A stretch of 64,000 nt of DNA from Myxococcota bacterium (GCA_965223705.1 OZ245015.1:2208001-2272000), one strand, 5' to 3'; counted from the first letter of the stretch, positions 17,000 to 42,354 are shown. Made by a program: numbers and translations. The notes: generated by a model not told the origin, from the sequence alone.

Positions 17000-17057
17000 C
17001 GGACGCGGATGTCCGAGACCTTCCGCGTCCGCCGGCCCGATCGGACATCGATGACCC
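17000..17057. promoter_or_regulatory. Paired palindromic enhancer-like boxes
   Basis: CGGACG-CGGA-TGTCCG (17000-17015) and CGGACA-TCGA-TGACCC (17042-17057). Confidence 0.6.
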
Positions 17058-17096
17058 GAATGCTGCTCGGACCCCGCTCAGGCGACGTTTTGCGGT

Positions 17097-17112
17097 TGGC
17101 ACGCGATCTGCA
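17097..17112 (+). promoter_or_regulatory. sigma54 (-24/-12) promoter
   Basis: TGGCACGCGATCTGCA, 12 nt before ATG 17125. Confidence 0.7.
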
Positions 17113-17124
17113 CCCTCTTCGGCC

Positions 17125-17649
17125 ATGACACAACCCATTCGTCCAAAATCCATCCGGAACCGCACCGTCGTCTACGCCGATCCCCTTCTGTTTCGCCCGG
17201 CCGACGGCGCCGAGAGTTTGCAGCGTTATGTCCGCGAACTCGACGGACAAGGCGCCGACCCGTTCGTGCTGTTCGATGAAGAACCCGAACTCGAGAGCCT
17301 GTTCAGCGAGCTACCGGCTGAAGAAGTTCCGCTCCTCCGCCGCGAGGAAAAGGAGCATGGGAGCAAGGTCGCAGCGTTCGCCGACGCCCTCCTGGCAGAC
17401 ACCCTGGAGCTGGCTGTCGACGTCGACCGAGTACGAACGCCTCGGGGGGCCCGCTCGATGCTCCGCCAAACGGAGCTTCGATCGATGTTGGCCGCGGGAA
17501 CCGAGCGCGATGCGATCTCGTCCTGTCTGATCGCCGCCGACCGGGCGTTGACCCTTGGCATCGAGGCGGTGCGCGTCGGACACCCTCGCGCGCTGCTCGA
17601 AGATCGCGCGACCCGTATCCACGGGGACAACGCGAAGCTTGCTGCGTAG
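17125..17649 (+). CDS. Degenerate amino-acid-kinase (ArgB-like) fold protein, paralog 1
   Basis: AAFADALLADTLELAVDVDRV..G, LIAADRALTLGIEAVRV..ATRI follows AAK C-lobe pattern; aligns with 41550..42221. Confidence 0.65.
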   Translation: MTQPIRPKSIRNRTVVYADPLLFRPADGAESLQRYVRELDGQGADPFVLFDEEPELESLFSELPAEEVPLLRREEKEHGSKVAAFADALLADTLELAVDVDRVRTPRGARSMLRQTELRSMLAAGTERDAISSCLIAADRALTLGIEAVRVGHPRALLEDRATRIHGDNAKLAA

Positions 17650-17708
17650 CGTGCGCGTGCGGTACGCCCCGGCCGGCAGGGCCGACCCGCGCTGGTAACA
17701 TTGCGTTC

Positions 17709-18728
17709 ATGGCGCGCCGCGAGACCGTCGAAGCGCGGTTCGCGACCCGTTGTCGGGTCGCCGCTGCACTGTTCGTAGCGCTCGCCTTCGGTCAAGTCGG
17801 ATGCGGCGGCCCTTCGACGTTGGGCACGATCGAACGGAAGGACCCGCGCCTCGACGCACTGCTGGCGCCGGACGCGCGGATCGAGATCCTGGCGGACGGG
17901 TATGACTGGGCGGAAGGCCCAGTCTGGGTGAAGCACGCCGGTTACTTGCTCTTCTCGGACGTCCCATCCAACCGGATCTGTCGGTGGAAACGGGGAGAAG
18001 GCGCGCGAACCTACCTGCGGCCGTCCGGCGGGTCGAATGGCCTCGCGATCGACACGGCCGGAAGACTCGTCCTCTGCCAACACGGCGACCGTCGACTTGC
18101 GCGGATGGAGGTGTCGCTCGAACGCCCCGCACCGCGGCACGTCACGCTCGCGGGAGAGTTCGAGGGCAAGCGCCTCAACAGCCCCAACGACCTGGTCTTC
18201 CACACGGATGGGGCCATCTATTTCACGGATCCACCCTACGGGCTGCCCAAGGGGATGGGCGACCCCGGAAAAGAGCTCGACTTCCAGGGGGTCTACCGAC
18301 TCGGAACGGACGGTGAGCTCACGCTTCTCACGAGAGAGATGACGCGGCCGAACGGGATCGGCTTGTCCCCGGACGAAAGGACGCTCTACGTGGCGAACTC
18401 GGATCCGATGCACGCCGCGTGGTATGCGTTCCCGGTCGAAGCGGACGGCACCCTCGGAGCCGGCCGGGTCTTTGCGGATTTCACGGCGCAGGTGGGAGGC
18501 GCGAAGGGCCTGCCGGACGGCCTCAAGGTCGACGAACAGGGCAACCTGTGGGCGACAGGGCCGGGAGGCGTGATCGTCTTCGCGCCCGACGGAACGCACC
18601 TAGGCACGCTGGCGACCGGCGAGGCCACCTCGAACTGCGCTTGGGGCGAGGACGGTTCGACGCTCTTTATTACCGCCGACCAGTATCTCGCTCGCATTCG
18701 CACACGCACCAAAGGCCTGCGCTTCTAG
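17709..18728 (+). CDS. SMP-30/gluconolactonase family lipoprotein
   Basis: WAEGPVW, NSPND, PNGIGLSPD, PDGLKVD; lipobox-like VGC. Confidence 0.92.
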   Translation: MARRETVEARFATRCRVAAALFVALAFGQVGCGGPSTLGTIERKDPRLDALLAPDARIEILADGYDWAEGPVWVKHAGYLLFSDVPSNRICRWKRGEGARTYLRPSGGSNGLAIDTAGRLVLCQHGDRRLARMEVSLERPAPRHVTLAGEFEGKRLNSPNDLVFHTDGAIYFTDPPYGLPKGMGDPGKELDFQGVYRLGTDGELTLLTREMTRPNGIGLSPDERTLYVANSDPMHAAWYAFPVEADGTLGAGRVFADFTAQVGGAKGLPDGLKVDEQGNLWATGPGGVIVFAPDGTHLGTLATGEATSNCAWGEDGSTLFITADQYLARIRTRTKGLRF

Positions 18729-20062
18729 TCGAGGCGCGTCGGTCGGAGCTCGATGAAGCTTCCGCTGTCGACCCACAGGAGGACGGACCCGTCGGCCAGC
18801 TGGACCAGGTCGCGGATCCGCTCGCCGATCGGGATAGCCTCCGAGAGCGCGACCCGGTCTTCGATCATGCGCAGCCGGAAGAGCGAGCGTCCGACCAGAG
18901 AGGCGACGAGGAGGTCGCCATCCCAAGCTTCCGGTTCGCGCTGGATCTGGATGACGTTCGAGACGCCGATCGACGGAGTCCATGCATAGACCGGCTGCGC
19001 GAACCCGTCGTGTCGACCCTGCCGGCGATTCAACGGCCACTCGAGCTTGCCGTAGTCGGTGCCGAGCGTGACGACCGGCCATCCGTAGTTTCCGCCGGAG
19101 ACGATCGCGTTCAGCTCGTCGCCGCCTTCGGGGCCGTGATCGGTGGCCCAGAGATTCCCGTCCCGGTCGAAGGTCAGGCCCTGCGGGTTGCGCAAACCCA
19201 TCGCGTGTACGGTCACATCGCCTGAGTCCGGATCGATCCGCAGGATCTTGCCGTAGCTCGACGTCTCGTCCTGGCTGGCGATCCGCGGCACCGTCACGCC
19301 GTCGTAGCGCTGGTCTCCGGTGCCTACGAGCAGCTTCCCGTCGGACGCGACGACGATCCGCCCCCCGGAATGGTCTGTGTTGAAGGGAGAGGGGTCGGCC
19401 GGATCGAACCCGATCCGCGGCCAGCTGTCGAAGACGACATCCCAGGCACGCGGTTCTGCGGTGAGCCGGCCCACCAGCAGCGTTCCGACGTCGGGAATGA
19501 GTAGCCGCGAGATGCGGAGCGACTTCTCCGCCGTGTCCGCGTGCCAGAACTGATGGGCGACAAACAAGTCGAGCCCGGCAGCGGTCTCACGGGCTGCGAT
19601 GCCCGCCACGCGCATGGTGACCGCGAGCCGCGCTCGGAGGGATTCTTCGGGAACGACGCGGGACACGTGCTCGAGAAAGGCCTGCCGGTTCGAATCGAGC
19701 CCGAGGTCGATCCGGCGGATCTCGCCCCCGCCCCGATAGACGAAGAACGTGCCGGCCCGGTCGACGCCCAGCACGGCATTCCGCACGCGTACCAAGCCGC
19801 CGCCGCGCCCCAGCAGGGCATCGGAGTCCGCTCCGGTGTAGGTCCTCGTCTCGAGCCGCAGAACGCTGGTCGCGATCGTCTGCGGACGGTCTGGCCGCTC
19901 CGGACCCTGCGGAAACAGGAGGCGCTCCGCCGCCCCGAGCTGGTGGTAGGGAAAGATTCGTTGGGTGATTACGAGCGCGCTGTAGAGCCCACCCAGGAGG
20001 AAGGCGGCCGCGACCGCTGCGCACCATCGCAATCGGCGGGTTCGGTGGCTGATGTCGGTCAC
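18725..20062 (-). CDS. PQQ-dependent sugar dehydrogenase (GSDH/YliI-like)
   Basis: HSGGRI, GKILRI, GLRNPQG, TDHGPEGGDELN, GGNYGWP. Confidence 0.88.
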   Translation of the reverse strand: MTDISHRTRRLRWCAAVAAAFLLGGLYSALVITQRIFPYHQLGAAERLLFPQGPERPDRPQTIATSVLRLETRTYTGADSDALLGRGGGLVRVRNAVLGVDRAGTFFVYRGGGEIRRIDLGLDSNRQAFLEHVSRVVPEESLRARLAVTMRVAGIAARETAAGLDLFVAHQFWHADTAEKSLRISRLLIPDVGTLLVGRLTAEPRAWDVVFDSWPRIGFDPADPSPFNTDHSGGRIVVASDGKLLVGTGDQRYDGVTVPRIASQDETSSYGKILRIDPDSGDVTVHAMGLRNPQGLTFDRDGNLWATDHGPEGGDELNAIVSGGNYGWPVVTLGTDYGKLEWPLNRRQGRHDGFAQPVYAWTPSIGVSNVIQIQREPEAWDGDLLVASLVGRSLFRLRMIEDRVALSEAIPIGERIRDLVQLADGSVLLWVDSGSFIELRPTRLD

Positions 20063-20161
20063 GCGCGGACCTCGAGATGCGATGGTGAGCGATGCCCAGG
20101 TGCAGCGAGCGTAAGGGAGAACCCAGGGCGGCGCCCAGTGCGTGGACTGCTCCGCGCGCGC

Positions 20162-23174: not shown

Positions 23175-23176
23175 AG

Positions 23177-28783: not shown

Positions 28784-30229
28784 ATGAATTTTCGACGGGT
28801 AATCGGAATTCTGAGCTTTGTGCTCTATTCCCTCGCTATTGCTCAGCTAATTCCTTTGGCATGGTGTCTTCATCCGTTCGATCGGAACGGGGCCACGGGG
28901 CTTTTGGTCGGTGCGGCCGCGGCCGCGGTATTCGGAACGGTCTTTCGCCTCGTGGGCCGCACGGACGGCGAGCTCTACCGACGCGAGGGCGTTCTCGTCG
29001 TCGTGCTCGCTTGGCTCTTCGCCTCGGTGACCGGTGCCATCCCGTACCTCGCGAGCGGCGCGATCGCGCTTCCGACAGACGCTTTGTTCGAGTCGGTCTC
29101 GGGGTTTACAACCACCGGCGCATCGATCCTCGCAGACATCGAGGCCCTACCGGCCGGCCTGCTCGTGTGGCGGAGCATGACGCAGTGGCTCGGTGGCATC
29201 GGGATTGTCGTGCTGTTCGTCGCACTGTTGTCGGAGCTCGGGCCCGGCGCCCGGTTCCTCGTCAAACTCGAAGTTCCCGGCTCGAACAATGAGATCATGC
29301 ACGCCCGCGTGAGAGAAGCGGCTCGATCCTTGTTCCTCATCTACTTGGGCCTCTCCGTCGCGCAGTTGGTTCTCATGCTGCTCTTCGGAGCGACGCTCTT
29401 CGACGCGGTGACCCACACCTTCGCCACGGTGTCGACGGGAGGCTTCTCCCCTTACAGCGATTCGGTGGCACACTTCTCGACGCCGCTTCAAGGAATCGTC
29501 CTCTTGTTCATGCTGGTTTCGGGGGCGAACTTCGGGCTCTACTTCGCGCTGATTCAATCCCGGGATTTCGGCATCTTTCGGGATGTCGAGTTCCGTTTCT
29601 ATCTCGCCCTGGCGACGGTGGTCACCGTCGTTGCCGCGATCGATATCTATGCATCGGGCTGGAACCCGGACCCGTTCCGAGATCTCTTCGACGCCGCGTT
29701 TCACGTCGTTTCGCTCCTCACGACAACGGGGTTCGCGACCGCTGATTTCGCGCAGTGGCCGGGCTTCGCGCACACGGCGCTGGTCAGCGTGATGTTCGCC
29801 GGCGGCTGTGCGGGCTCAACAGCCGGCGGGGCGAAGCTCGTGCGCCTCTTGATCGGAATCAAGATCGCCCTCCGAGAAGTTCATCTCACGTTCAACCCGC
29901 GGTCGGTGATCGCGATTGCGGTCGGCGATCGCGTTGTGCCGGAAGCGTCGGCCCAGGGAGCCGTGTCTCTACTGGTTCTGTGGCTCTTCGGCTGCGGCGT
30001 CGGGGCGCTACTCCTGTCCGTCGGCGACACGGATTTCGTGACCGCCGCGACCGCCTCACTCGCGACGATTTCGAACGTCGGGCCCGGTCTGGCCGCCGTC
30101 GGGCCGACGGAGAACTTCGCGTTCTTCGCGAGTTGGCAGAAGCTCGTGATGATCGTTCTGATGTGGCTGGGCAGGCTCGAGTTCTTCGCCTTGCTGGCGT
30201 TGGTGCTACCGAGGTTCTGGAGGGTCTAG
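28784..30229 (+). CDS. trkH: TrkH potassium uptake membrane subunit
   Basis: FESVSGFTTTGA, QWLGGIG, STGGF, TTTGF, GGCAGSTAGG, NVGPG, GRLE. Confidence 0.95.
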   Translation: MNFRRVIGILSFVLYSLAIAQLIPLAWCLHPFDRNGATGLLVGAAAAAVFGTVFRLVGRTDGELYRREGVLVVVLAWLFASVTGAIPYLASGAIALPTDALFESVSGFTTTGASILADIEALPAGLLVWRSMTQWLGGIGIVVLFVALLSELGPGARFLVKLEVPGSNNEIMHARVREAARSLFLIYLGLSVAQLVLMLLFGATLFDAVTHTFATVSTGGFSPYSDSVAHFSTPLQGIVLLFMLVSGANFGLYFALIQSRDFGIFRDVEFRFYLALATVVTVVAAIDIYASGWNPDPFRDLFDAAFHVVSLLTTTGFATADFAQWPGFAHTALVSVMFAGGCAGSTAGGAKLVRLLIGIKIALREVHLTFNPRSVIAIAVGDRVVPEASAQGAVSLLVLWLFGCGVGALLLSVGDTDFVTAATASLATISNVGPGLAAVGPTENFAFFASWQKLVMIVLMWLGRLEFFALLALVLPRFWRV

Positions 30230-31083
30230 ACCGCGGCCTCCTGCGTCGCCGCTTCAAGGCGCACCGGTAGGGGTGCCGTTTGGCTTCCGGCGTACAGCGT
30301 CCGGTGCGGGAACGGGATCTCGATGTTTTCGGCGTCGAACGCTTCCTTGATCTCGTGCTGAATCGAGTTCCGAAGATCGAGGAAGTTCTCCCGTGCCGCC
30401 CACACGGAGAACTGAATTTGCAGCGCGGAGTCTCCGTAGCCTGTGAAGATAAACAGCGGAGGCGGCTCCTCGAGCGACAAGGGGTTGCGATCGGCGACTT
30501 CGGCGAGGACTTCACGCACGCGCTCGATGTTTTCCTTGTAGGCGACACCGATCTGGATATCGACCCGGCGAATCGGGAATCGCGTCAGGTTCGTGATCTC
30601 CGACTTGATCAGGGTTTCGTTGGGAATACGGACGAGGAGGTTGTCAAAGGTACGCAGTTTGGCTGACAACAGATCGAGAGAGATCACTTCGCCGGTGGTG
30701 CCGCCAACCCGAATCGTGTCTCCGACGCCGAAGGGATGCTCGCCGATCAGAAACAGTCCACTGACGAGATTCGAGGCCGAGGTTTGCGAGGCAAAGCCCA
30801 AGGCGACCCCGACAACGCCCGCAGCGCCCAACAAGACCGATAGATTGAAGCCCAGTTGATGAAGGGCGCCGGTCGCGAAGAGAAGGATCACGAAGTAGCT
30901 CAGGCCGCGACGCAGGAGCTGTGCGCGGTGCTGGTCGAGATCGTCCTCCACCAGGCGGTGCAAAGCCGCTCCGACGATCCTCGCGATCACAAGACCCGCC
31001 GCGAGAAGCGTCGCCGCTCGTATCACCGCCGAGAAGAGCTCGGGATGCATCCACTGCGGCAAGAAGGCTCCGATCGAGTCCAT
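30226..31083 (-). CDS. Small-conductance mechanosensitive channel (MscS family)
   Basis: GVALGFASQ..SNLVSG, PFGVGD, RIPNE, IEIPFP. Confidence 0.93.
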   Translation of the reverse strand: MDSIGAFLPQWMHPELFSAVIRAATLLAAGLVIARIVGAALHRLVEDDLDQHRAQLLRRGLSYFVILLFATGALHQLGFNLSVLLGAAGVVGVALGFASQTSASNLVSGLFLIGEHPFGVGDTIRVGGTTGEVISLDLLSAKLRTFDNLLVRIPNETLIKSEITNLTRFPIRRVDIQIGVAYKENIERVREVLAEVADRNPLSLEEPPPLFIFTGYGDSALQIQFSVWAARENFLDLRNSIQHEIKEAFDAENIEIPFPHRTLYAGSQTAPLPVRLEAATQEAAV

Positions 31084-31107
31084 ATCGAATGAATCCTCCC
31101 GAAGGTC

Positions 31108-31908
31108 TCAGAGCAGCCGACTGAACGCGCGAACCAGCCCGCGCGGTGTTTCTGAGCGCGGTTCCGCCAGCTGCTCGGCGTCGCGGGGGATCGCGTCGTC
31201 GACCTGGATGTCAGCGAGTTCATCGTCATCGTCTTCGCGAGTCAACGTGAGCTGCGACGTTCGCATGATGCCGGCCGAGTCAACCCACAGCCCGAGGCCG
31301 GGGACGGGTACTTTGATGCGCTCGATTCGAAGGGGCGTCGATCCGAAGTTCCGGATGCACACTTCGGTCACCGCACGGTGGGGGCTCCAGCGCACGTCCT
31401 CCTGCCGGAGACGCAGGCGTGTCCGCGAGGCGTAGCAGAGCTTGCCGTCGCGGGTGTTTCGCCCAAACCAGGTATCCGAGAGACGGACGAGGGGAAGCTC
31501 GATGACGGGTGCCGCGTTCGCTTCCAAGGCGATGCCGAGCCAGAGTGGGGACCCCACGTAGCCCGTGAGGGTGCTGCCCGGGATGACCCAAAACGGTTTC
31601 TCGGGACGGGACACGACATCGCGGTCGGCGAGGCGCGGGCGAAGGTCGACGTGTTGCGATGCCTCGGGCAAGCCGGCGAAGCGCTGCGCGGGTCCCGAGA
31701 GTTCGTCATCTCGCGGCAAGGGCGCGTTCGCGACGACTTCGAGTTCATCGGAGAACGGATCGCCTTCGCTGGCGCTGCGAATGACCCACTCGCGAGGTTG
31801 ACGCTCGATCCATAGCTGGGCGGGCCCGATCCGCCAACGCATCGAGGTCCCGACGCCCAGCACGGACGACCCCCACCAGCGCCGATCCGCGGATTCCGCG
31901 TTCGTCAA
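31108..31908 (-). CDS. Hypothetical protein, DUF432-like
   Basis: LADRDVVSRP, LSDTWFG..GKLCYA; beta-rich; directly upstream of MscS. Confidence 0.6.
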   Translation of the reverse strand: MTNAESADRRWWGSSVLGVGTSMRWRIGPAQLWIERQPREWVIRSASEGDPFSDELEVVANAPLPRDDELSGPAQRFAGLPEASQHVDLRPRLADRDVVSRPEKPFWVIPGSTLTGYVGSPLWLGIALEANAAPVIELPLVRLSDTWFGRNTRDGKLCYASRTRLRLRQEDVRWSPHRAVTEVCIRNFGSTPLRIERIKVPVPGLGLWVDSAGIMRTSQLTLTREDDDDELADIQVDDAIPRDAEQLAEPRSETPRGLVRAFSRLL

Positions 31909-31920
31909 CTTCTCGCGACC

Positions 31921-32670
31921 TTAGGCGTATTCCAGCGTGTGGCCGAAGGACGTCCGGAGCGGGGGCAGCGAGAGTTCCAGCCAGCCGGGCTCGTGCTCTC
32001 CGCGCACGCGTACGACCACCGCTGTGGCATCCGGGACGGGGTTCCTGCGGTGAGCCGTCCCGACGATGCGGCTGGCCAGCACGCGGGGTGAGAGGTCGCC
32101 TGCGGCGCGAACGAACGCTGTGTCTTCGAGGACTTCTTCCGCACCATCGGTGCAGAGAACGACGGTGTCTCGGGGTTCCAGATCTACGCCGAACACTTCC
32201 ATCGTCAGGTCGCCACCTTCGTCGACCGCGGCGTCTTGCGAAAGCTCGTGGTCGCGGGTCAGCTGGTGTGCGCGCCCTCGCCGGATCAGGTAGGCGCGGC
32301 TGTCTCCTCGATGCCCGATCACCCCGCGGTCTCCGTGTGCGAGGAGCATCGTGATGGTGGTGGAGAGTCCGCGTAGATCCGGTTCGCTCCGGACCGCGTC
32401 CTCGAGCGCCATCAACGCGTGCCCCATCGCCTGGTCGACGAGGGCACGGGCAACGCGTGCACGCGGCAGATCGAGCTCCCGTCCCGTGCGATCGACGAAC
32501 TCCTCGACGGTTTTCGCCGCCAGCCGAGCAGCGACCTCGCCACCCGGGCGTCCCCCGACACCGTCACAGACCACGTACAAACCCAGCCCGTCCTCCGCCA
32601 GAAAGACGTCTTCGTTGTGGAACGAGTCTCCGCCGGCGCGAGAGGCACCGCTGCCTTCAGTAGATGACAT
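31921..32670 (-). CDS. PP2C-family Ser/Thr protein phosphatase
   Basis: HNED, VCDGVGG, GDSRAY, LCTDG, DAT. Confidence 0.9.
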   Translation of the reverse strand: MSSTEGSGASRAGGDSFHNEDVFLAEDGLGLYVVCDGVGGRPGGEVAARLAAKTVEEFVDRTGRELDLPRARVARALVDQAMGHALMALEDAVRSEPDLRGLSTTITMLLAHGDRGVIGHRGDSRAYLIRRGRAHQLTRDHELSQDAAVDEGGDLTMEVFGVDLEPRDTVVLCTDGAEEVLEDTAFVRAAGDLSPRVLASRIVGTAHRRNPVPDATAVVVRVRGEHEPGWLELSLPPLRTSFGHTLEYA

Positions 32671-32800
32671 ATACGACCCCCTCGCTCGTTTGTAGGCGTC
32701 GGGAGCGCGCCCGGCAAGACTCCGCCCGCCCCGCCGGACAGGCTAGAGCAAGGGAGACTCGCTTCTTGAAGTTTCGGCCGACAACGACTACGCCCCTTGG

Positions 32801-34069
32801 ATGGACGCCCTGCTCCGGAAGGCCGACAGCCGCCTCGTCGAAGCGGCAAAGGGACTGCATGTGCTGGCCCATCTCGCTTGGCCCTCGTCCGTCCAATCGG
32901 AGTTCCTGGCCAACTTCTCGGCCGGTCGCCCCGCCCTTCCCGAGGTGCACTACGCAAACCTCGATCTCAGCGACACGCTCCGTGAGCTCGCGCAGATCGC
33001 CGGGGACGCCGCGCGCGTCGACTCACCGATTGCTCGCTACCTCGAGCGGACCGCGCGATCCTATCTCGCGATCGGGCGTCTGATGAACTGCGCGGGATCA
33101 CGTGAGGCCGGAAACATCTCCATCGAGATCTACGGCCGACCCGGAGATCCTCTGCCCGGCAGCACCACGAACAACCTGGATGCCGCGCTTTATTTCGTCG
33201 AGATCAGCCGAGAGTACGAACGAGCGACCAGCGGAGAGGCCGTCGACTATTGCCTTACCGGGAGCATGGTCGCCGACGCCATGGCGGAGCGCATCGGCTC
33301 TGTGATTCCGGAGAATATCGTCGAGGTCAAAGTCGATTCCCGCCTGGTTGCGAAAGCGGCGGCCGGCGCCACGCGCGTCCGCCTGCGCGAGGGGACGCAC
33401 TTCACGAAATTCGACGTCGAGCAGCTGCTGCAACACGAAGTGTTTGTCCACAGCCTGACGGCGCTGAACGGTCGTGCCCAGGGGCAGCTGACGAGTCTTT
33501 CTCTCGGCGCGCCGCGCACGACCGCGACACAGGAAGGACTCGCGACCTTCGCCGAGCTTGTGACCGGGGCGATCGATATTCAACGCATGGAGCGCATCGC
33601 CCTTCGGATCATCGGAATCGATGCCGCACTGTCGGGTGCGGACTTCATTGAGGTCTTTCAGCTCTTTCGCGAGGCGGGTCAGCCCGACGTGGAAAGCTTC
33701 AATTCGACGATGCGCATCTTCCGAGGCGTTCCTGTCGACGGGGGTGACGCCTTCACGAAAGACGGTGTCTATCTACAGGGGCTCCTCGAAGTTCACACCT
33801 TCTTTCGCTGGGCCCTGCAGAACGGTCGGCTCGAGCTGGGGCGGTATCTCCTCGGGGGTCGCATGAGCCTCGGAGACGTCTTCGCTCTCGAGCCATTCTT
33901 CAGGGCCGGAGAGCTCGCGGGGCCGCGCTATCTCCCACCTTGGATGACGCAAACGAACAACCTGACCGCCCATCTCGCCTTTTCCGTCTTCGCCAACCAC
34001 ATTGCGATTGATGACGTGGTTCCGGAGGCGTTCGAGCGTACGGGCGACCGTTGGAACCGACCTCGATAG
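32801..34069 (+). CDS. QEGLA-motif metallopeptidase (DUF1704 family)
   Basis: HEVFVH (HExxxH), TQEGLA, FTKDGVYLQG. Confidence 0.88.
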   Translation: MDALLRKADSRLVEAAKGLHVLAHLAWPSSVQSEFLANFSAGRPALPEVHYANLDLSDTLRELAQIAGDAARVDSPIARYLERTARSYLAIGRLMNCAGSREAGNISIEIYGRPGDPLPGSTTNNLDAALYFVEISREYERATSGEAVDYCLTGSMVADAMAERIGSVIPENIVEVKVDSRLVAKAAAGATRVRLREGTHFTKFDVEQLLQHEVFVHSLTALNGRAQGQLTSLSLGAPRTTATQEGLATFAELVTGAIDIQRMERIALRIIGIDAALSGADFIEVFQLFREAGQPDVESFNSTMRIFRGVPVDGGDAFTKDGVYLQGLLEVHTFFRWALQNGRLELGRYLLGGRMSLGDVFALEPFFRAGELAGPRYLPPWMTQTNNLTAHLAFSVFANHIAIDDVVPEAFERTGDRWNRPR

Positions 34070-34137
34070 CGTCTGCGAGATAGGCCTTGCCCCTCGGGTG
34101 ACGCTGCTCGATCCTGGCGGCGGGAGAACACGAAACC

Positions 34138-35457
34138 ATGTCCGAGGTGCAAGCAGAAGTCTCAACCTGGTTGATGGAACGATGGGCTTCGATCCTGGAC
34201 TGGTCGACGAGCGCCTTGTTCTACAGCCAGTTGGCGGGGATCGTCGTAGCGGTCCTCATCGCAGCCCTTCTCGCCGCCCTCGCGCGGCGGCGGCTCCCCG
34301 TCTTCGCGCGGGAACCGAGCCCGGGTGCGCTCTTCGGTTTGCGTTCTGGCCTGCACCGTCTGCGCCCGCTCGTCTTTCCACTCCTCAATATCTTGTTCCT
34401 CGGCGTAGCGGTTGAGGTCGCCGAAGCCTACGAGATGCAAAGCTGGCTCATCCGTCTCGCGCGAAGCGTCGCGGTCGTGGTTCTGCTGTTTTCGATCGCC
34501 TCGGGCTACATCCAGAACCCCCTGATCAAGGCGGCCGCCAGATGGATCGTGATCCCCGTGGCGGCCCTCCAGGTCTTCGGCTGGCTCGACGACGTCACGG
34601 CGTACCTCGACTCGGTCTCGATCAACGCGGGCAACCTGCGGCTCTCGTTGTTCGCGTTGTTGCGCACCCTCTTCTTCGGCGGCCTCCTGTTCTGGCTCGG
34701 CCGGATCTCGAATGACGCTGGCAAGAAGGCGATTCGCAACCAGCAAGCGCTCAACGCCGGAACCCGGGAAGTCGCGGCAAAGCTCTTCGAGATCGGGTTG
34801 GTCGTCGTCGTCTTCCTGCTGCTGCTGAACGTCATGGGGATCAACCTGACCGCACTCGCCGTATTCGGCGGCGCGCTGGGCGTGGGCCTCGGCTTCGGGT
34901 TGCAGCAGATCGCCTCGAACTTCATCTCGGGAATCATCATTCTGCTCGACCGCTCGATCACGATCGGAGACCACATCGAGCTCGAGGACGGTCGCTCGGG
35001 CACGCTGCGCGAACTGAACATGCGTTTCGCCGTCATCGAAACCTATGACGGCAAGGACGTCGTCGTCCCGAACGAGCAGTTCATCACGACCTCGTACACC
35101 AACTGGACCCACAAAGATCCACTTCAGCGCTATGCCCTGGAGTTCCAGGTCGCCTACTCAACCGATCTCGATCTCTTGTTCGAAAACATCCGACAACTCT
35201 GTGCGGAGCATCCACAGGTCGTGAGCGGTGACGATCTGCCGATCGAGATCCGACCGGACGCCGAGATCGCCGGTTTCGGCGATTCCGGGATCGACATCCT
35301 CGTCGAGTTTTGGATGGAGGGAATCGACGACGGCAAGAACCGCGTCGGAGCGGATCTCCTGCACGCCATCTGGCGATCGATTCAGGAACACGGCATGGAA
35401 ATTCCGTTCCCGCAGCGCGAGGTGCGGATCCTGAACGACAGCGGCGACCGACGTTAG
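34138..35457 (+). CDS. MscS-family mechanosensitive channel (extra N-terminal TMs)
   Basis: GVGLGFGLQQIASNFISG, VPNE, EIPFPQR. Confidence 0.93.
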   Translation: MSEVQAEVSTWLMERWASILDWSTSALFYSQLAGIVVAVLIAALLAALARRRLPVFAREPSPGALFGLRSGLHRLRPLVFPLLNILFLGVAVEVAEAYEMQSWLIRLARSVAVVVLLFSIASGYIQNPLIKAAARWIVIPVAALQVFGWLDDVTAYLDSVSINAGNLRLSLFALLRTLFFGGLLFWLGRISNDAGKKAIRNQQALNAGTREVAAKLFEIGLVVVVFLLLLNVMGINLTALAVFGGALGVGLGFGLQQIASNFISGIIILLDRSITIGDHIELEDGRSGTLRELNMRFAVIETYDGKDVVVPNEQFITTSYTNWTHKDPLQRYALEFQVAYSTDLDLLFENIRQLCAEHPQVVSGDDLPIEIRPDAEIAGFGDSGIDILVEFWMEGIDDGKNRVGADLLHAIWRSIQEHGMEIPFPQREVRILNDSGDRR

Positions 35458-35482
35458 GCCGGCCGGAGGCCGCTTCTGCGAT

Positions 35483-37234
35483 TCAGGAGTTGAGGAGCGC
35501 GTTGACCGCTTCCACGAGTTCCGAGGGGAGGTACGGCTTTGGCAGGAAGTTCACTCTTTCGTTCTTGGTGACGCGCGAAACGGTTTCCCCCACCGCGTAC
35601 CCAGAACACAAGAGGATCGGGAGCTCGGACTGGATCGCTCTCAGCTCCCGGAACGTCTTCTCCCCGCTCCAGCCCGGCATCAGCATGTCCAGAACGACCA
35701 GATCGACGGCTTGCCCGGAGGACAAGGCCTCGACCACCTCGCGACCGCCTTGATACTCGATGACGCGGAACCCCTCGGACTGAAGCACCCGAAGGCAGGC
35801 GCGACGCACGTCCTCGGCGTCGTCGACGACGGCCACCGTGCTGCGACGTGCCTCCCCACGCGATCGTTCATCGGCTGCCACGGACTTTTCTCCATCAGCT
35901 AGGGGAAGGTAGAGAGAAATTTCCGTCCCCTCGCCCACCCGCGTGTCCAACATGAAGCCGCCGCCGAACCCTCGCGCGGCCGCCAACGCGGTCGCGAGAC
36001 CCAGGCCGCGGCCGTTCCCTTTAGTCGTGGCGTAGGGATCAAATATTCGCTCTTCGATTTCGGTCGAGATTCCCGAGCCCGTATCGCGCACGGAGCAACA
36101 CGCATAGCCGCCGCCGCTTCGCGGTTCAGGGGGTATCAGATTCGAGGCCTCGAGGGTCGTCAGCGACGCATCGTGGGTATGGACGTGAATTTCGCCGGCG
36201 CGATTCCCAATGGCCTCCCCCGCATTGATCAAGCAGTTCATTACGATCTGGTGGAGTTTCGCTTCGTCTGCCTCGATCGGGAGCGAGGTACCGCACGACA
36301 CGTGCAGATCGACCTCGGGAGGCAGGGAGCTCTGGGTGAGTGCCGCAATCGCTTGAACTTCCTCGCTCATGTCGAGCAGGCGGCTCGCTTCGACGGTCTC
36401 GCCGGCATAGGTGCGAATTTGCGCGAGAAGGGCTCGCGACCGCTCCGCAGCCGAAACGATGTCCGCGACGACCGCAGCATTCTTGTCGTCGGGGTTCGTG
36501 CGGGCCGACAGCAGCTCCGAGTTCGCGAGGATCGGGACCAGCAAGTTGTTGAAATCATGAGCGATTCCGGCTGCGAGCTGTCCCAGGCCCTCGCGCTTCT
36601 CCGCTACGCGGAGCCGATTTCGAAGACGGTTCTGCTCATCGAACTCTTGCTGCAGTGCCAGCTCAGCGACGCGCTGCGCGTAGACGGCTTCGCCCAGTTG
36701 AATGGTCAGACGGTTCGAGATCGTTCCAGCCAGGAAACCGAAGAAGACGATGGCCCCGCCGATGGCAACCACGACCGTCCCCGGAACTTCAACAGGCCAA
36801 AGATGCGGGGCAATCGTGAGCAGCGCGGCGTTCGCAATCGATACGACACTGACGTTGCCGACCACCGTTCCGCACAACACGCAGGTGAAGAGGAGGACCG
36901 GCGGACCGGAGCTTCCGATTCCCTGGAAAATCGTGCAAAGCGCACCCGTCGCAAAGGCGAAGATGACGATGGAATAGGCTTTGATTTTTTCGGGTACGTT
37001 TCGCGGAAGAAGAACCGCGCACATCAGAATGAACATTACTCCGAACGTTGTCGGGAGGAACCATTCACCTGTCCGGATATCGTTCGGAATCCCGCCGAGC
37101 CACGCCATCGCCGTGAGCCCCAGGATCCAAGGCGTCATTCTCCGCAGTAGCGCCGCGCGGTGTTCGGCCACGATCGAAGTGGCATCGAACGCTTCGATCT
37201 CCTCGCCGCGTGATCTTTCGAGGCTCGGACGCAA
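35483..37234 (-). CDS. Membrane hybrid histidine kinase (HisKA + HATPase + receiver)
   Basis: TM region; AHDFNNLL; DTGSG; GRGLGL; VVDD..LDMLMP..KP; start uncertain. Confidence 0.9.
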   Translation of the reverse strand: MRPSLERSRGEEIEAFDATSIVAEHRAALLRRMTPWILGLTAMAWLGGIPNDIRTGEWFLPTTFGVMFILMCAVLLPRNVPEKIKAYSIVIFAFATGALCTIFQGIGSSGPPVLLFTCVLCGTVVGNVSVVSIANAALLTIAPHLWPVEVPGTVVVAIGGAIVFFGFLAGTISNRLTIQLGEAVYAQRVAELALQQEFDEQNRLRNRLRVAEKREGLGQLAAGIAHDFNNLLVPILANSELLSARTNPDDKNAAVVADIVSAAERSRALLAQIRTYAGETVEASRLLDMSEEVQAIAALTQSSLPPEVDLHVSCGTSLPIEADEAKLHQIVMNCLINAGEAIGNRAGEIHVHTHDASLTTLEASNLIPPEPRSGGGYACCSVRDTGSGISTEIEERIFDPYATTKGNGRGLGLATALAAARGFGGGFMLDTRVGEGTEISLYLPLADGEKSVAADERSRGEARRSTVAVVDDAEDVRRACLRVLQSEGFRVIEYQGGREVVEALSSGQAVDLVVLDMLMPGWSGEKTFRELRAIQSELPILLCSGYAVGETVSRVTKNERVNFLPKPYLPSELVEAVNALLNS

Positions 37235-37323
37235 ACCAAAATCCTAAGAGCGCCGCCTGGCGTGTCGCCAGATGTGGGTCAACCGGGCTCCAATGTACCA
37301 AGCCGGGGGACTCCTGAGTGCGC

Positions 37324-38946
37324 TCAATCGAAGGAGTGATTCTCGTCGGGCTCTGCCGGTTCCTGCGCCGCCGGCGCGATGTCGTCGGTGAGCTGCCGCA
37401 GGTGGTGCACCGCCCGCCACGCGTGGTGGGCGACGCGTTCCAGCCAGCGATACGCGTCCATGAGCGCCAACGCATCGGCTGCAGCCAACGCATCCGGAGC
37501 CACCTCCTTCCCGATCGTATTGCGGAACTGGACGCGGTCGCCGGAGAGATCGGCGCAAAGTGCTTCGAGCACTCTCTCCTTTGCGTCGAGCGCGTCGGCG
37601 GGTGCGGTCTCGGGAACGAGTGCGGCGGCGAGTCGCGCGGTTCGTTCGCCGAACAGGGGACTCCCGTCGAGTGCTTCCACGCGCTCGTGTTGGGCCTCCC
37701 TGGCGAGGAGACGGTTCAGTTGGTCGACGACGTGAAGAGCGGCGCGTCGACGGGCAGCGGATTCCCGAGTGGGCTCGACCAGCGAGAGATAATTTTCGAC
37801 ATCGCCGAGGGCGATCTGGAGTAGCTCGCGCCGATCCTGGTGGTTCCCCGACGTCCGATGCGAGACCAGTTGATCGCGCAGAATCTCAAAAGTGTGTTGG
37901 GCCAGCTCGACGAGCGTGGGACCGATCGCCCGTACGGCCACTTCGGGGTCGGAGAGCAGACGGCGATCGAGCCGCTCAGTGAGAGGCGTGGGGCGATCGG
38001 GTACGACCCGTTCCACGAGCCGCGCGAAGGGTTGGGTCAGCGGTAGCACCGCCACCACGCCCACGAGATTGAACGCCGTGTGGAAGGCCACAAGCGACAG
38101 CTCCGGCTGGCGCAGGAGCACTCCGGGGAGGAGCGTCTCCGAGGCGAGGACGAACATCGGTAACAGCAGGAACGCCGCCGCGGCCGTCATCACGTTGTAG
38201 ATCACGTGGGCCCAGCCCGTGCGTCGGCCGGCGAGCGAAGCCCCGATCGCCGCGAAGCCCGCGGTGACAGTGGTTCCGACATCCATCCCGATCACGAGTG
38301 CCGCGGCTTGCGGGAAGCCGATGGCACCGCCGGAGATCGCGGCCAGAGCCGAGGCGACACCGGCGCTCGAAGACTGCGTGACCAGCGTGAAGACGACACC
38401 GACGCCGACGAGCCGAAGCCGACCGGCCACCGAGTCTGCGGGAAACTGCTCCGGGGTCACCAGTCCTTCGAATGCGGCACTCCCCTCCCGAAGCATCTCG
38501 ATGCCCACAAACGCCAAGCCGAACCCGGCGATCCCCAGGCCGGCGCTCGCGAGGCGCCCTCGCCCGAACACCCGCAAGAGCGCTCCCGCGAGGACGACCA
38601 CCGGCATCGCGGTTCCGAGTTCGAGCTTGAATCCGACCCATGCGACGATCCACCCGGTGATCGTCGTGCCGACGTTCGCTCCGAAGACGATCCCGAGCGC
38701 CTGCGGGAACGTGAGGAGGCCGGCGCTCGCGAAACCGACCGCGGTGACTGTCGTGACACTCGACGACTGCACCAGGGCCGTGGCGGTCGCACCGGTAAGC
38801 GCTCCGGAAGTCGGGTTTCGCGTGAAGCGTCGCAAGGCGCGGTGGATTGCCGCTCCGGCGAGGTCCCGGAGCCCCTGGCTCAGGATGACCATCCCGAGGA
38901 GGAAGAGACCGAGACCTCCCGCGACTTCGAGGGCGTTCTGTACCAT
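37324..38946 (-). CDS. Na+/Pi cotransporter family protein
   Basis: GGLGLFLLGM, two QSSS repeats, GANVGTT/GMDVGTT, PhoU-like tail. Confidence 0.92.
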   Translation of the reverse strand: MVQNALEVAGGLGLFLLGMVILSQGLRDLAGAAIHRALRRFTRNPTSGALTGATATALVQSSSVTTVTAVGFASAGLLTFPQALGIVFGANVGTTITGWIVAWVGFKLELGTAMPVVVLAGALLRVFGRGRLASAGLGIAGFGLAFVGIEMLREGSAAFEGLVTPEQFPADSVAGRLRLVGVGVVFTLVTQSSSAGVASALAAISGGAIGFPQAAALVIGMDVGTTVTAGFAAIGASLAGRRTGWAHVIYNVMTAAAAFLLLPMFVLASETLLPGVLLRQPELSLVAFHTAFNLVGVVAVLPLTQPFARLVERVVPDRPTPLTERLDRRLLSDPEVAVRAIGPTLVELAQHTFEILRDQLVSHRTSGNHQDRRELLQIALGDVENYLSLVEPTRESAARRRAALHVVDQLNRLLAREAQHERVEALDGSPLFGERTARLAAALVPETAPADALDAKERVLEALCADLSGDRVQFRNTIGKEVAPDALAAADALALMDAYRWLERVAHHAWRAVHHLRQLTDDIAPAAQEPAEPDENHSFD

Positions 38947-39224
38947 TCGTGAGGATTGGCCCTGCAACAATGGGGCCTGGAACGCGTTGGCCCCTAACAG
39001 GTCGCGTCCCATGCACGCTGAGAATTGGATCGGAGCGATCGACCCGGAGGCTCCTGCAACGGATGCCGCCCGGCGCGGCGGCGGCTCGCCGTCGTCGCCG
39101 GCGCATTCTTTCAATCGGAACCGGCGGACCCGGCCGATCTAGCGGCGCTGCCGCGGCCCGCGCATTGCAGGAGACAGCTCGACACAGATTGTGGCGGATC
39201 GTCCCAGCTCGGCGTGAGCAGCGC

Positions 39225-39240
39225 TGGCATGCTGCCTGCA
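39225..39240 (+). promoter_or_regulatory. sigma54 (-24/-12) promoter
   Basis: TGGCATGCTGCCTGCA, followed by AGGAGG RBS and ATG 39266. Confidence 0.65.
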
Positions 39241-39265
39241 TCGTGTTCCGCAGGAGGCTCCTGCC

Positions 39266-39532: not shown

Positions 39533-39546
39533 TTCTCGCGGGATGC

Positions 39547-40008
39547 TCAAGATCCCGCTGGCGAAATCACGATCGCCGGGTGTCGGCCGTCCTGATCTGA
39601 ACACAGGACATCGGTCGTGGGATCGGCGTGCGCGAAGGCTCGAGAGCTTCGCTCTCCCAGGGCGTCGACGACCCCTTGCACGTAGTCTTCCGACTCCCAT
39701 CTCGGATCGTTTCCGGACGGTTCGCAGTAGCCGAGTTCGATGTGACCCGGCTCAAAGTCGCGAATCAGTTCGGCCGCTGCGTCGATCAGCACCTCGCTCT
39801 CGGCGGTCAAGCGCTCACCGTTCGGCGCGAGCGTCAGCCCGCGCACGACGATGGGCGCGTTGTCCTCGTCTGCGCCCGCGAACTCGGTGCCCGCCGTAGC
39901 GGAGGTAGCCGTGAACAATCGGATCGCCGCGAGCAGCGCGATCAGTCCGAGCAACAGCAGGAGCCGCGTTTCTTCTCTTCCGGTCTTGTTTGCGAGCCTT
40001 TGATTCAT
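39547..40008 (-). CDS. Membrane-anchored protein with degenerate OmpA-C-like domain
   Basis: TM helix, then IVVRGLTLAPNGERLTAESEVLIDAAAELIR..IELGY; lacks the canonical GHTD and LSxxRA motifs. Confidence 0.5.
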   Translation of the reverse strand: MNQRLANKTGREETRLLLLLGLIALLAAIRLFTATSATAGTEFAGADEDNAPIVVRGLTLAPNGERLTAESEVLIDAAAELIRDFEPGHIELGYCEPSGNDPRWESEDYVQGVVDALGERSSRAFAHADPTTDVLCSDQDGRHPAIVISPAGS

Positions 40009-40020
40009 ACCGAACGGTGG

Positions 40021-40036
40021 TGCAAGTTCCGTTCCA
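40021..40036 (-). promoter_or_regulatory. sigma54 (-24/-12) promoter
   Basis: TGGAACGGAACTTGCA on minus strand, 12 nt before ATG 40008. Confidence 0.7.
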
Positions 40037-40075
40037 AGGTCTTGTGATCGCTCTGTCCTTCTGGGCAGGGGGAAT

Positions 40076-40132
40076 CGGACACCCCTGGCCTGTCTTGTGG
40101 GAGCACGCGCTAGAATCGGCCACCTATGTCCG
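40076..40132. promoter_or_regulatory. Paired enhancer-like boxes; second overlaps bEBP start codon
   Basis: CGGACA-CCCC-TGGCCT (40076) and CGGCCA-CCTA-TGTCCG (40117); TAGAAT -10 at 40111. Confidence 0.6.
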
Positions 40133-41553
40133 ATTCCGCGATGCGAGGCGCCCGGATTGTCGTGCGTGGGGACCATGGCTTGGCTCCCGCTCTCGAGGCC
40201 GCTGGTCTCGATGTGACACTGGCTCCCGAAGCGTCGCAGGGTGCCTTGGCCGAGGGCCCGCCACGCCTCGTGGTGTTTTCGGAGGACGTCCCCGACCTGG
40301 TCCGACAGGTCAGGGAGTCTCGCGCGCGCTGGCCGCTCGTCGATGTTCTCGTCCACGCCGCCGACGCGTCGGCGCGTGATGTCCGAGCCTTGCTGCAGGC
40401 CGGTGCCCGGGACGTGTTGCTCGAGACCGACACCGAGTCGGTCGCAACGGCGGTTCGTCGGGCGCTCGAGGCGCAACAAATCCTTCCCGCCGTCGAAGAG
40501 CTATCGAAGCGCCGGGTTCGTTCTTCGCGGTTCGAAGGCATGTTGAGCCGCAGCAACGCCATGTGGGACGTTTTCGAAACCTGTGCGCGGGTCGGCCCGA
40601 CGGATGCGAGCGTCTTGATCTGCGGCGAGACGGGTACGGGCAAGGAGCTTCTGGCGCGGGCCGTTCACCGACGGTCCGGAAGATCCGGGCGATTCGTCCC
40701 CCTCAACTGCAGCGCAATTCCGGACCATTTGGTCGAATCGGAACTCTTCGGACACGAAAAGGGAGCGTTCACCGGTGCCGTGAAGGAGAGTCCGGGAATC
40801 TTCCGGCGCGCGCAGGGTGGGACCGTTTTCCTCGACGAGATCGGGGATATGCCGCAACCGGCCCAACAATCGCTCCTGCGCGTCGTCGAGCAGCGCGTGG
40901 TGCGACCGGTCGGGTCAGCCGATGAGGCGCCCGTGGACGTTCGTATCGTCGCCGCCACGAACAAGCCCCTCGAGGAGGCCGTGGCTGCCGGGACGTTTCG
41001 CGAAGATCTCTTTTACCGGCTCGACGTCATCCGGCTTCAGATCCCGGCGCTGCGCGATCGTCCCGAGGATATCGTCTACCTGTTCGGGTTTTTTGCCAAG
41101 CGACTCGCCAAGCACTACGGCGTCGCACCACCGAAGATCGGTGACGCGTTTATCGGCGAGCTCACCGCGTACCCCTGGCCGGGCAATGTCCGGGAGCTCG
41201 AAAATCTTGCGGAGCGTCTAACGCTTCGCGGAGAGAGTCGAGCGCTTGCGGCGTCCGACTTCCACCGCTCCGTTCGTCCTGCCGGTGATGGCGTGGGCGC
41301 GGCCGAATCGTCTGCGTCCACCGATCGCGCGCCTCCGTGCGAGATCGACACGACAAAGACCCTCGAGCAGACCGTGATGCCTCAGCTCAACGAAATCGAG
41401 GAGCGCTATCTCGCCGCGCTTCTCACCGAGACGGGCGGGAGCGTTCGAGAGACGGCGTCCCGGGCGGGCGTGTCACCTCGAACGCTCCAACGCAAGATGG
41501 CAGCGCTCTCACTCGATAAGGCGGACTTCAAGTCGCCGGGAGCGGACGACTAA
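40126..41553 (+). CDS. sigma54-dependent enhancer-binding protein (NtrC-like) with degenerate receiver
   Basis: GETGTGKE, ESELFGHEKGAFTGA, FLDEIG, FREDLFYRL, WPGNVREL, C-terminal Fis-type HTH. Confidence 0.93.
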   Translation: MSDSAMRGARIVVRGDHGLAPALEAAGLDVTLAPEASQGALAEGPPRLVVFSEDVPDLVRQVRESRARWPLVDVLVHAADASARDVRALLQAGARDVLLETDTESVATAVRRALEAQQILPAVEELSKRRVRSSRFEGMLSRSNAMWDVFETCARVGPTDASVLICGETGTGKELLARAVHRRSGRSGRFVPLNCSAIPDHLVESELFGHEKGAFTGAVKESPGIFRRAQGGTVFLDEIGDMPQPAQQSLLRVVEQRVVRPVGSADEAPVDVRIVAATNKPLEEAVAAGTFREDLFYRLDVIRLQIPALRDRPEDIVYLFGFFAKRLAKHYGVAPPKIGDAFIGELTAYPWPGNVRELENLAERLTLRGESRALAASDFHRSVRPAGDGVGAAESSASTDRAPPCEIDTTKTLEQTVMPQLNEIEERYLAALLTETGGSVRETASRAGVSPRTLQRKMAALSLDKADFKSPGADD

Positions 41554-42221
41554 GCCGCTGTGGCGTAGGGGTGGTGGCGACTGCCTCGCAGTCTCCACCA
41601 AGCACTGGTGACCCGCTCGTAGCGTTCACTCAGACACGCTCCCACCGGCGTGCGGCGCAGGTTCCAGCTCGTGGCTGCGGGCCGGTCCGTGACCGTTGCT
41701 GCGTAGGAAATTTGCGGGTCCGGCACGAGTTCGGTCGCGTTGCCGCGCGTCAGGGTTTCCGGAGAGCCGAAGCGGACGCGGGCGACTCCCTTTCGAAAGG
41801 CGTCACAGCCCGCGGCGAGTTTCTCTCGGATCTTCTTGCGAACGCCCGGGCATTCCGACAGCGCTTCCGCCCGGCCGATCGAGAGCTCGTGCGCTGCGTT
41901 GCCGTTCTCGTCGTACACGACGGGCGCGTCGATCACGAAGTCGAGGGCATCGGCGTGGAGCCGTGAGGCGATCTCGGCGGAAAGCTCCTCCTCGGACTTC
42001 GACTTGGCACCCGCGAGTTCATTGGTCGGAAGACTCGTTTGGCTGGCCGCTTTTTCGATCTCTCGATGTCCGCGGTGCAGAAGCAAGGAGCGGTCTTCGT
42101 CGACGGAGTTCAGGTACTGGGCAAGCCGCTCCGGTCCGCTCGGATGTTGTAGGACCAGGGCTCCGGCGTGAATGACCCGCTCGACAGGATGGCGTTCCGA
42201 CTGAATTGGCACGTTTCGCAT
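41550..42221 (-). CDS. Degenerate amino-acid-kinase (ArgB-like) fold protein, paralog 2
   Basis: AEIASRLHADALDFVIDAPVVYDENG..ELS..KLAAGCDAFRKGVARVRF..ATEL; AAGGAGG RBS. Confidence 0.7.
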   Translation of the reverse strand: MRNVPIQSERHPVERVIHAGALVLQHPSGPERLAQYLNSVDEDRSLLLHRGHREIEKAASQTSLPTNELAGAKSKSEEELSAEIASRLHADALDFVIDAPVVYDENGNAAHELSIGRAEALSECPGVRKKIREKLAAGCDAFRKGVARVRFGSPETLTRGNATELVPDPQISYAATVTDRPAATSWNLRRTPVGACLSERYERVTSAWWRLRGSRHHPYATAA

Positions 42222-42253
42222 GTTGGTTCGTGTCCTCCTTGCCACGACAACAG

Positions 42254-42269
42254 TGCACGAGCCGTGCCA
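42254..42269 (-). promoter_or_regulatory. sigma54 (-24/-12) promoter
   Basis: TGGCACGGCTCGTGCA on minus strand. Confidence 0.7.
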
Positions 42270-42307
42270 GCCGTCTAGCGCCAGGAGAGCGCGTTAGGCA
42301 CCGAAAC

Positions 42308-42354
42308 CGGACATCCGTGTCGCGTCTTCGCGGTATCTCGGCCATCGCTGACAG
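42308..42354. promoter_or_regulatory. Paired enhancer-like boxes
   Basis: CGGACA-TCCG-TGTCGC (42308) and CGGCCA-TCGC-TGACAG (42339). Confidence 0.55.

Follow-up and report, generated by a model that had tools for sequence, protein, structure and literature searches.

A candidate sigma-54 regulon in a Myxococcota genome, marked by a palindrome found beside orthologues of one enhancer-binding protein

Do three sigma-54 promoters, each preceded by a pair of similar quasi-palindromes, belong to one regulon, and is the enhancer-binding protein encoded between two of them its activator? The question is raised by a stretch of 64,000 nucleotides from a Myxococcota bacterium (GCA_965223705.1 OZ245015.1:2208001-2272000), referred to throughout as the window, and by the 4.56-Mb genome that holds it (G000). 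A sequence-only reading had proposed a new sigma-54 regulon at positions 17000-42354, in which the activator gene at 40126-41553 serves three genes, here called A, B and C. The candidate stands as real and undescribed: its operator is conserved beside activator orthologues, and the window promoters are top-ranked in their own genome. We hold it quite probable that the boxes are copies of a 20-bp palindrome and that the 40126 activator, likely binding them through its Fis-type helix-turn-helix (HTH) domain, opens promoters A, B and C. In general, enhancer-binding proteins occupy sites upstream of the promoter and form oligomers that remodel sigma-54 polymerase (parts of PMC7057263 and PMC4641369).

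Promoters and paired boxes

On re-reading of the sequence, all six boxes and three promoters lay exactly where they had been placed, and the distances were exact on recount: 39, 39 and 38 nt from the proximal box to the -24 element at promoters A, C and B, with the second copies 42, 41 and 31 bp further out. The ranks in the following list come from a matrix built without the window, as described in the next section.

17000..17015, no strand: distal activator box of promoter A, CGGACG-CGGA-TGTCCG (rank 326 of 4.54 million positions)
17042..17057, no strand: proximal activator box of promoter A, 39 nt upstream of -24, CGGACA-TCGA-TGACCC (rank 16 genome-wide)
17097..17112, + strand: sigma-54 -24/-12 promoter A, TGGCAC-N5-CTGCA (rank 1 of 354)
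40021..40036, - strand: sigma-54 promoter C, divergent from the activator gene, TGGAAC-N5-TTGCA from 40036 (rank 2 of 354)
40076..40091, no strand: proximal activator box of promoter C, CGGACA-CCCC-TGGCCT (rank 252)
40117..40132, no strand: distal activator box of promoter C, overlapping the activator's first ATG at 40126, CGGCCA-CCTA-TGTCCG (rank 34)
42254..42269, - strand: sigma-54 promoter B, then a leader with AAGGAGG, TGGCAC-N5-GTGCA from 42269 (rank 3 of 354)
42308..42323, no strand: proximal activator box of promoter B, 38 nt upstream, CGGACA-TCCG-TGTCGC (rank 15 genome-wide)
42339..42354, no strand: distal, weak activator box of promoter B, CGGCCA-TCGC-TGACAG (3 mismatches; rank 3293)

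Each promoter has one mismatch to the -24/-12 consensus. The box consensus first proposed, CGG(A/C)CA-N4-TGNCCG, fits box 40117 exactly, but the other five boxes deviate from it; mismatches to CGGACA-N4-TGTCCG number 1, 2, 2, 1, 2 and 3 in the order of the list. The 38-nt spacers have diverged between promoters (10, 18 and 10 of 38 positions identical). Distal boxes are centered at about -105 to -115 and proximal ones at about -73, and orthologue boxes lie 28-104 nt from -24. Orthologous loci have their promoter at the place that promoter C occupies with respect to the activator gene. Promoters A and C both have their first ATG exactly 28 nt beyond the base that opens the -24 element. With the ATG thus at about +3, their mRNAs would have almost no leader; the leader at promoter B is 22 nt long and contains the AAGGAGG. 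Scans for sigma-70 promoters and terminators returned chance-level results only.

Independent test of the operator

The fixed spacing at three loci had been taken to argue against chance, with the caveat of a GC-rich motif in a GC-rich genome. A box with at most two mismatches occurs 36-42 nt upstream of 3 of the 241 sigma-54-like sites in G000, all three in the window, a count that is post hoc. Of the 45,056 possible palindromic consensi with 6-base arms and spacers of 0-10, 209 matched three or more promoters at a single distance, and four, namely the window's own and three all-GC consensi, did so with second copies too; because of these, the spacing argument is suggestive but not by itself sufficient. 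Nor is whole-turn spacing between boxes general, the steps in orthologues being mostly 22-24 and 38-39 bp.

The orthologous loci provide a test from which the window can be left out. An N-terminal alignment of the activator gave 27 genome loci, of which 26 were kept, and 20 metagenome loci, of which 18 were kept; the three dropped (L058 from the genomes, L077 and L078) were non-orthologous 30-residue matches and are excluded from every count. A de novo palindrome count without the window found GGGAC-N6-GTCCC and its nested forms in 18 of 24 upstream regions, compared with a maximum of 6-9 in 30 shuffles. Iteration extended this motif to the 20-bp ATG[GA]GACA-N4-TGTC[CT]CAT, with 59 sites in 22 of 23 orthologue upstream regions, related genomes among them not being independent. 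A divergent sigma-54 promoter usually has two or three of these boxes, with distances of 28-31, 51-54 and 90-93 nt in one arrangement and 39-42, 63-66 and 101-104 nt in the other.

Scanned across the whole of G000, the window-free matrix ranks the window boxes 15, 16, 34, 252, 326 and 3293, and it puts the three window promoters first, second and third of 354 sigma-54-like sites, with scores of 20.6, 19.5 and 14.4; the next site scores 7.6 and the median is -17.7. The other top-ranking positions in G000 were dropped, being either inside coding sequence or without a sigma-54 site. A possible fourth target (L093, G000:C1:3935716-3935793, - strand), where a single GGCCA-N4-TGGCC box precedes a good sigma-54 site by 48 nt, is unsupported by the matrix. 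Held-out metagenome loci scored at least 22 in 16 of 18 cases, or 9 of 11 without the five that copy training loci and the two that duplicate others in the set, and one of the two misses has no upstream DNA. At loci of other activators no score reached 10, neither at 19 in relatives (best 8.7) nor at 18 in G000 (best 2.7). Pattern searches of G095, G175 and G177 gave their sole genome-wide matches at shortened argB genes (described below), with none for the reversed control, and in four of five further genomes the single pattern match was the activator-adjacent promoter.

Judged from these sequence comparisons, the operator tracks activator orthologues across Planctomycetota, Eisenbacteria and Myxococcota-labelled genomes, and the 40126 activator is predicted with high confidence to read the boxes. 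The earlier assignment of this protein as cognate activator of all three promoters is thereby supported, the palindrome following its orthologues across phyla and being absent at the 37 other activator loci.

The activator

40126..41553, + strand: enhancer-binding protein, 475 aa, with a pseudo-receiver, an AAA+ domain with GAFTGA (PF00158, E 6e-65) and a Fis-type HTH (PF02954, E 6e-7)

The protein falls below every named NCBIfam cut-off shown, the best being NtrC (316 vs 559 bits). Its Walker A and B motifs are intact, and the GAFTGA columns are invariant or nearly so in 46 aligned orthologues; rpoN is present in G000 (TIGR02395, above cut-off). About 90 database orthologues, at 44-64% identity, come under source names including Myxococcales, Gimesia, Pirellulaceae and Eisenbacteria. 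In near kin, 30 close relatives contain only general paralogues (at most 46% identity), none of the 32 same-family genomes searched has it, and it occurs in 4 of 225 genomes of the class. G000 itself encodes about 19 full-length enhancer-binding proteins, with a single copy of this orthologue group. The activator gene and gene B are convergent, their stop codons overlapping at 41550-41553.

The recognition helix, S-R-R-T-x-x-R-K, is nearly invariant among the 46 orthologues. The receiver columns, read in their usual roles as checked against an NtrC1 alignment, are altered: the phospho-acceptor column has Asp in only 10 of 46, the window protein having Ser there; Trp occupies the Thr/Ser column in 32 of 46, and the Lys is kept in none. 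Because of the Asp and Lys counts, we regard this receiver as not phosphorylatable in the usual way, which makes either a small molecule or some partner protein its likely input. No kinase is among the families common to at least 3 of 31 loci. A hybrid histidine kinase gene lies 2.9 kb from the activator, in the window only.

Target genes in the window

17125..17649, + strand: gene A, 174 aa, a strongly diverged, internally deleted member of the ArgB (acetylglutamate kinase) family (profile A2, E 5.7e-25)
41550..42221, - strand: gene B, 223 aa, an ArgB-derived predicted pseudokinase with a 92-residue internal deletion (AAK fold, by profile and structure model)
39547..40008, - strand: gene C, 153 aa, an N-terminal hydrophobic segment and a putative degenerate domain like the OmpA C-terminal domain (Foldseek)

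Genes A and B had been described as AAK-like pseudo-enzymes, and both descriptions held. Twenty relatives of gene B have E values of at most 2e-7, and their profile matches T. maritima NAGK (E 5.8e-12); the structure model of gene B (pLDDT 84) retrieves the AAK fold in Foldseek (3d2p, 2bty, 1gs5), and the NCBIfam ArgB score of B is 21 vs a cut-off of 151. Gene A is a distant paralogue, assigned to the AAK fold by profile only: BLASTP of A against B gave no match, so that the link needed a profile search, and A has one 61% homologue (P0003). A label of terminase nuclease for gene A (atlas features), held with high confidence, was rejected because the ArgB-deletion profile matches at the E value above and the deletion aligns.

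The deletion is clean, is common to about 20 family clusters and removes the substrate-side region. In E. coli ArgB numbering, taken from the 1gs5 alignment, and given the usual roles of Lys8, HGGG, Arg66/Asn158, Asp181 and Lys217, the family has His, Tyr or Arg in place of Lys8, HGGG has become HxGQ, and the substrate-binding Arg66/Asn158 region is not kept. The Asp181 equivalent is retained in 18 of 21 rows of family A2 and the Lys217 equivalent in 21 of 21, and gene B has both; gene A keeps the Asp and has lost the K8 and K217 equivalents. From these changes the shortened ArgB is predicted to be catalytically dead. That it serves as a nucleotide-binding regulatory protein is our preferred reading, at somewhat less than an even chance.

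In an unrooted, long-branched tree of 48 rows, the shortened family together with the activator-linked ArgBs split from housekeeping ArgBs, including that of G000, with support of 100/97, and the VRIG...AT ending is common to the activator-linked and shortened proteins. Shortened argB occurs in 5 of 225 class genomes, namely the four that have the activator plus G041. The closest orthologous pair of shortened argB has a ratio of nonsynonymous to synonymous substitution rates (dN/dS) of 0.18, similar to the 0.20 of the activator AAA domain. In G095 a cluster of NAGGN osmoprotectant genes lies just upstream of the shortened-argB promoter (L033); the record is labelled Spirochaetales, and our kinship table places it in the same order as G000. 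In G177 the gene after a further shortened argB (L101) is dps, which has a perfect sigma-54 site.

For gene C, the fold search agreed with the earlier description as a degenerate OmpA-like protein: about 30 top Foldseek rows are all of OmpA/MotB/Pal type, whose fold is beta-alpha-beta-alpha-beta-beta, with a best E of 4e-3 from a low-confidence single-sequence model of pLDDT 61. The OmpA family binds peptidoglycan through GHTD and R-A motifs, and the usual motif is absent here; in a weak match to a true OmpA in G092, gene C reads GYCE where that protein has GHTD. No Pfam OmpA match was obtained at E 1, nor any match in a PDB sequence search.

Targets at orthologous loci

The 26 genome loci comprise 15 with a sucrose cluster (SPS, sucrose synthase or phosphatase family F2), five with argC-argB-argD, two with a lone shortened argB, one with a PP2C and fructokinase-like pair, one unassigned and two cut off. 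In Planctomycetota an sps-spp-frk-ams-type gene set faces the activator; SPS or sucrose synthase exceeds its NCBIfam cut-off at L037, L043, L050 and L051, which have amylosucrase-type GH13 and fructokinase-like neighbors. The five argC-argB-argD loci also carry GNAT and argJ, as far as their contigs extend. NCBIfam names above cut-off among the targets are SPS, sucrose synthase, argC, argB, argD and ArgJ. GNAT genes recur at L070 and at L069, the latter with an ornithine-racemase-like gene (E 1e-73, below cut-off), and a second activator in G175 faces a full-length argB-GNAT-GNAT-ATP-grasp set with three boxes. G000 has its housekeeping argB, argC, argD-like and argJ genes elsewhere, and sps was not found in it. 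NAGGN genes, an SLC12 transporter, MscS and TrkH adjoin several loci.

At L074 (11856-12922 and 13739), downstream of two tandem activators, sigma-54 promoters with boxes precede a degenerate ArgC-like open reading frame (ORF; weak Pfam matches) and a small ORF; the former is likely a second arg-derived pseudo-enzyme under the same operator. Proteins of 720-750 aa with no Pfam or NCBIfam match follow GNAT and ATP-grasp genes at L074 (71-2245) and L100 (2722-4983).

Proposed mechanism

We suggest that the activator, as dimers, would occupy two or three boxes located 28-105 nt upstream and there form the AAA+ ring, which would remodel sigma-54 polymerase. The Asp-less receiver would sense a ligand or partner protein, and the box over the activator's own start codon would damp its expression by negative feedback. 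Orthologues likely turn on genes for sucrose or ornithine synthesis, and the ancestral output would have been a solute-making operon: for sucrose in Planctomycetota, and for an acetylated ornithine pathway in Eisenbacteria and Myxococcales. The ornithine operon would then have been whittled down from argCBD-J through argB-GNAT-GNAT-ATP-grasp to argB alone, with its 92 residues deleted, and the deleted ArgB, keeping the nucleotide-side Asp and Lys, could serve as a nucleotide-binding regulator. In G000 the only outputs of the switch are likely the two shortened, predicted-inactive ArgB copies and one small cell-envelope protein.

The sps-spp-frk-ams operon of Synechococcus PCC 7002 and methylotrophs is described as osmoprotectant in section 26 of PMC11046441, the portion of that source used here. 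Because of this, and of the NAGGN, SLC12, MscS and TrkH genes near several loci, osmotic or water stress is our first candidate for the trigger, at a probability just short of even. The largest form of this account, namely an old kinase-independent sigma-54 switch that couples stress to solute synthesis across phyla through one operator, and that here retains as sole conserved output a dead ArgB repurposed as a nucleotide-sensing regulator, we consider distinctly unlikely to be right as a whole.

Alternative explanations

Several observations weigh against a single regulon of this kind. The window boxes carry C where the family matrix has G or A, hence their lower scores, and box 42339 is marginal in both mismatches and rank. 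In G175 and G177 the matrix gives the first targets no more than 8.1 and 12.0, close to the control range, because they have C at position 4, as in the window. In the window activator Pro replaces the first Arg of the recognition helix (Pro451), the sole such case among the 46. Proximal boxes lie nearer to the promoter than the usually quoted 100-150 bp (in the relevant part of PMC7057263). At some loci the association of operator and target is incomplete: a shortened argB in G041 stands behind a good sigma-54 site (L103, 6561) with no box and no activator orthologue found; the second shortened argB of G177 (L101, 580-1975) follows a different activator and has no scored box; and at L074, with argC-B-D-J-GNAT-ATP-grasp, the operon's own promoter is without a scored box. 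As to the targets, the ArgB tree has the weaknesses given above, four distant pairs have dN/dS of 0.47-0.94 with dS near saturation, and the activator-linked argB is the only argB found in the five Eisenbacteria and Myxococcales genomes tested.

Since the linked argB is the sole one in those five genomes, the main rival keeps the same regulon and makes its signal nitrogen or carbon status (ornithine, arginine, N-acetylglutamate or a sugar phosphate), with storage or amino-acid outputs instead of osmoprotection. With no other argB present, a housekeeping or nitrogen role fits as well as osmotic stress; the non-planctomycete targets are moreover ornithine-centered (argC-B-D-J, the ornithine-racemase-like gene with GNAT, ATP-grasp ligases), and amylosucrase-type genes tie sucrose to glycogen. 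However, one ligand would have to govern sucrose and ornithine operons alike, ion and osmolyte genes recur near the loci, and arginine need not be the product: argG and argH gave no match in G228 and G231, two genomes with argC-B-D-J under the activator, where ornithine may be the end product unless the two genes are missing because the genomes are incomplete. We consider this rival unlikely, though a substantial contender.

A second possibility is that the regulon in G000 is a relic, with activator, boxes and three targets the decaying remains of a lost ornithine operon. Decay would account for the degeneracy of all three targets, the Arg-to-Pro change, the lower-scoring boxes, the absence of the activator from 32 of 32 same-family genomes searched and the loss in gene A of a Lys kept in every A2 row. 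Against it, the reading frames are intact, some 20 family clusters share one clean deletion, the closest pair gives the low dN/dS of 0.18, gene A has its 61% homologue elsewhere, and the boxes are held at 38-39 nt though the spacers have diverged. We judge a relic improbable.

The boxes might instead be read by another of the approximately 19 enhancer-binding proteins of G000 or by an unrelated factor, and the half-site does resemble the GAGACA of AcoR (in the portion of PMC12648084 that gives it); but the box tracks the 40126 orthologues across phyla, is absent from the loci of 18 other G000 activators and 19 in relatives, and the orthologue group has one copy in G000, making another reader very improbable. 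Chance GC-rich palindromes beside chance sigma-54 matches, which the 209 and four consensi counted above might seem to allow, are refuted by the matrix placing the three promoters first of 354 and by the box in 22 of 23 orthologous regions.

Comparison with known systems

The activator would work like an NtrC-family enhancer system, but is not of the phosphorylated NtrC type, the FleQ type or AcoR. It shares with NtrC, AtoC, ZraR and FlbD the domain order, GAFTGA, paired palindromes before -24/-12 and divergent layout (as far as PMC7057263 describes them in part); it differs in falling below the model cut-offs, in a receiver without the phospho-Asp, Thr/Ser and Lys, in having no recurring kinase at its loci, in its operator, and in a nearest box edge only 28-42 nt from -24. 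With FleQ, FlrA and VpsR it has a non-phosphorylatable N-terminal domain in common, and FleQ is its top solved-structure match by sequence (E 8e-102). The cyclic di-GMP motif of FleQ, LFRS/RN/ExxxR (from an excerpt of PMC10333796), reads RFEG/RA/no Glu in the activator by profile alignment to FleQ 8p53. FleQ, FlrA and VpsR have flagellar or biofilm targets, whereas the orthologue targets here are metabolic. AcoR has an N-terminal sensor that is not a receiver, and no acetoin (aco) genes stand at any locus examined. The Bacillus AcoR operator, ACGAGACA-GA-TGTCTCAT in the part of PMC12648084 that reports it, has a near-identical half-site, ATGAGACA / TGTCTCAT, but as GAGACA-N2-TGTCTC its spacer is 2 vs 4 here.

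Gene B resembles ArgB and non-catalytic AAK domains such as that of the N-acetylglutamate synthase ArgA in fold and in the C-lobe Asp181/Lys217 equivalents, and the genes here differ from them in the 92-residue deletion, the changed Lys8 and HGGG, and in standing alone behind their own sigma-54 promoter. The sucrose operons facing the activator in Planctomycetota have the same genes as those of Synechococcus PCC 7002 and the methylotrophs, for which sigma-54 or enhancer control was not found in the literature searched; G000 is without sps.

The regulatory logic of paired palindromes and sigma-54 is itself textbook, but the regulon is undescribed, with an atypical receiver and a new family of ArgB-derived predicted pseudo-enzymes. 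Our literature search found no description of the activator, the operator or the shortened ArgB; it did not extend to RegPrecise or to the logos and supplements of PMC4641369 and PMC12316311, and these logos and supplements could hold the motif, and sucrose is unmentioned in the main text, as far as it was available, of the 2025 sigma-54 regulon survey (PMC12316311). The results provide a precise candidate operator and activator for the sucrose operons of cultured Planctomycetota, e.g. Gimesia, for which the literature searched describes no regulator. They also point to sigma-54 control of the ornithine pathway, and a stand-alone pseudokinase family from ArgB for which the series from full operon to single shortened gene is visible in genomes.

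Neighboring genes

Divergent from promoter A lies a His-rich ORF of 133 aa with a lipoprotein-like N-terminus and no Pfam or NCBIfam match (16508-16909, - strand), and boxes 17000 and 17042 are also upstream of it. Directly upstream of promoter B are genes for a secreted-type protein with two glyoxalase/VOC domains (42395-43759, - strand) and a phosphofructokinase (43840-45159, - strand). About 600 nt from gene C is an ion and turgor block (28784-39114) with TrkH, two MscS, PP2C, a MATCAP-family protein, the hybrid histidine kinase and a Na/Pi cotransporter, and within which no promoter bears boxes.

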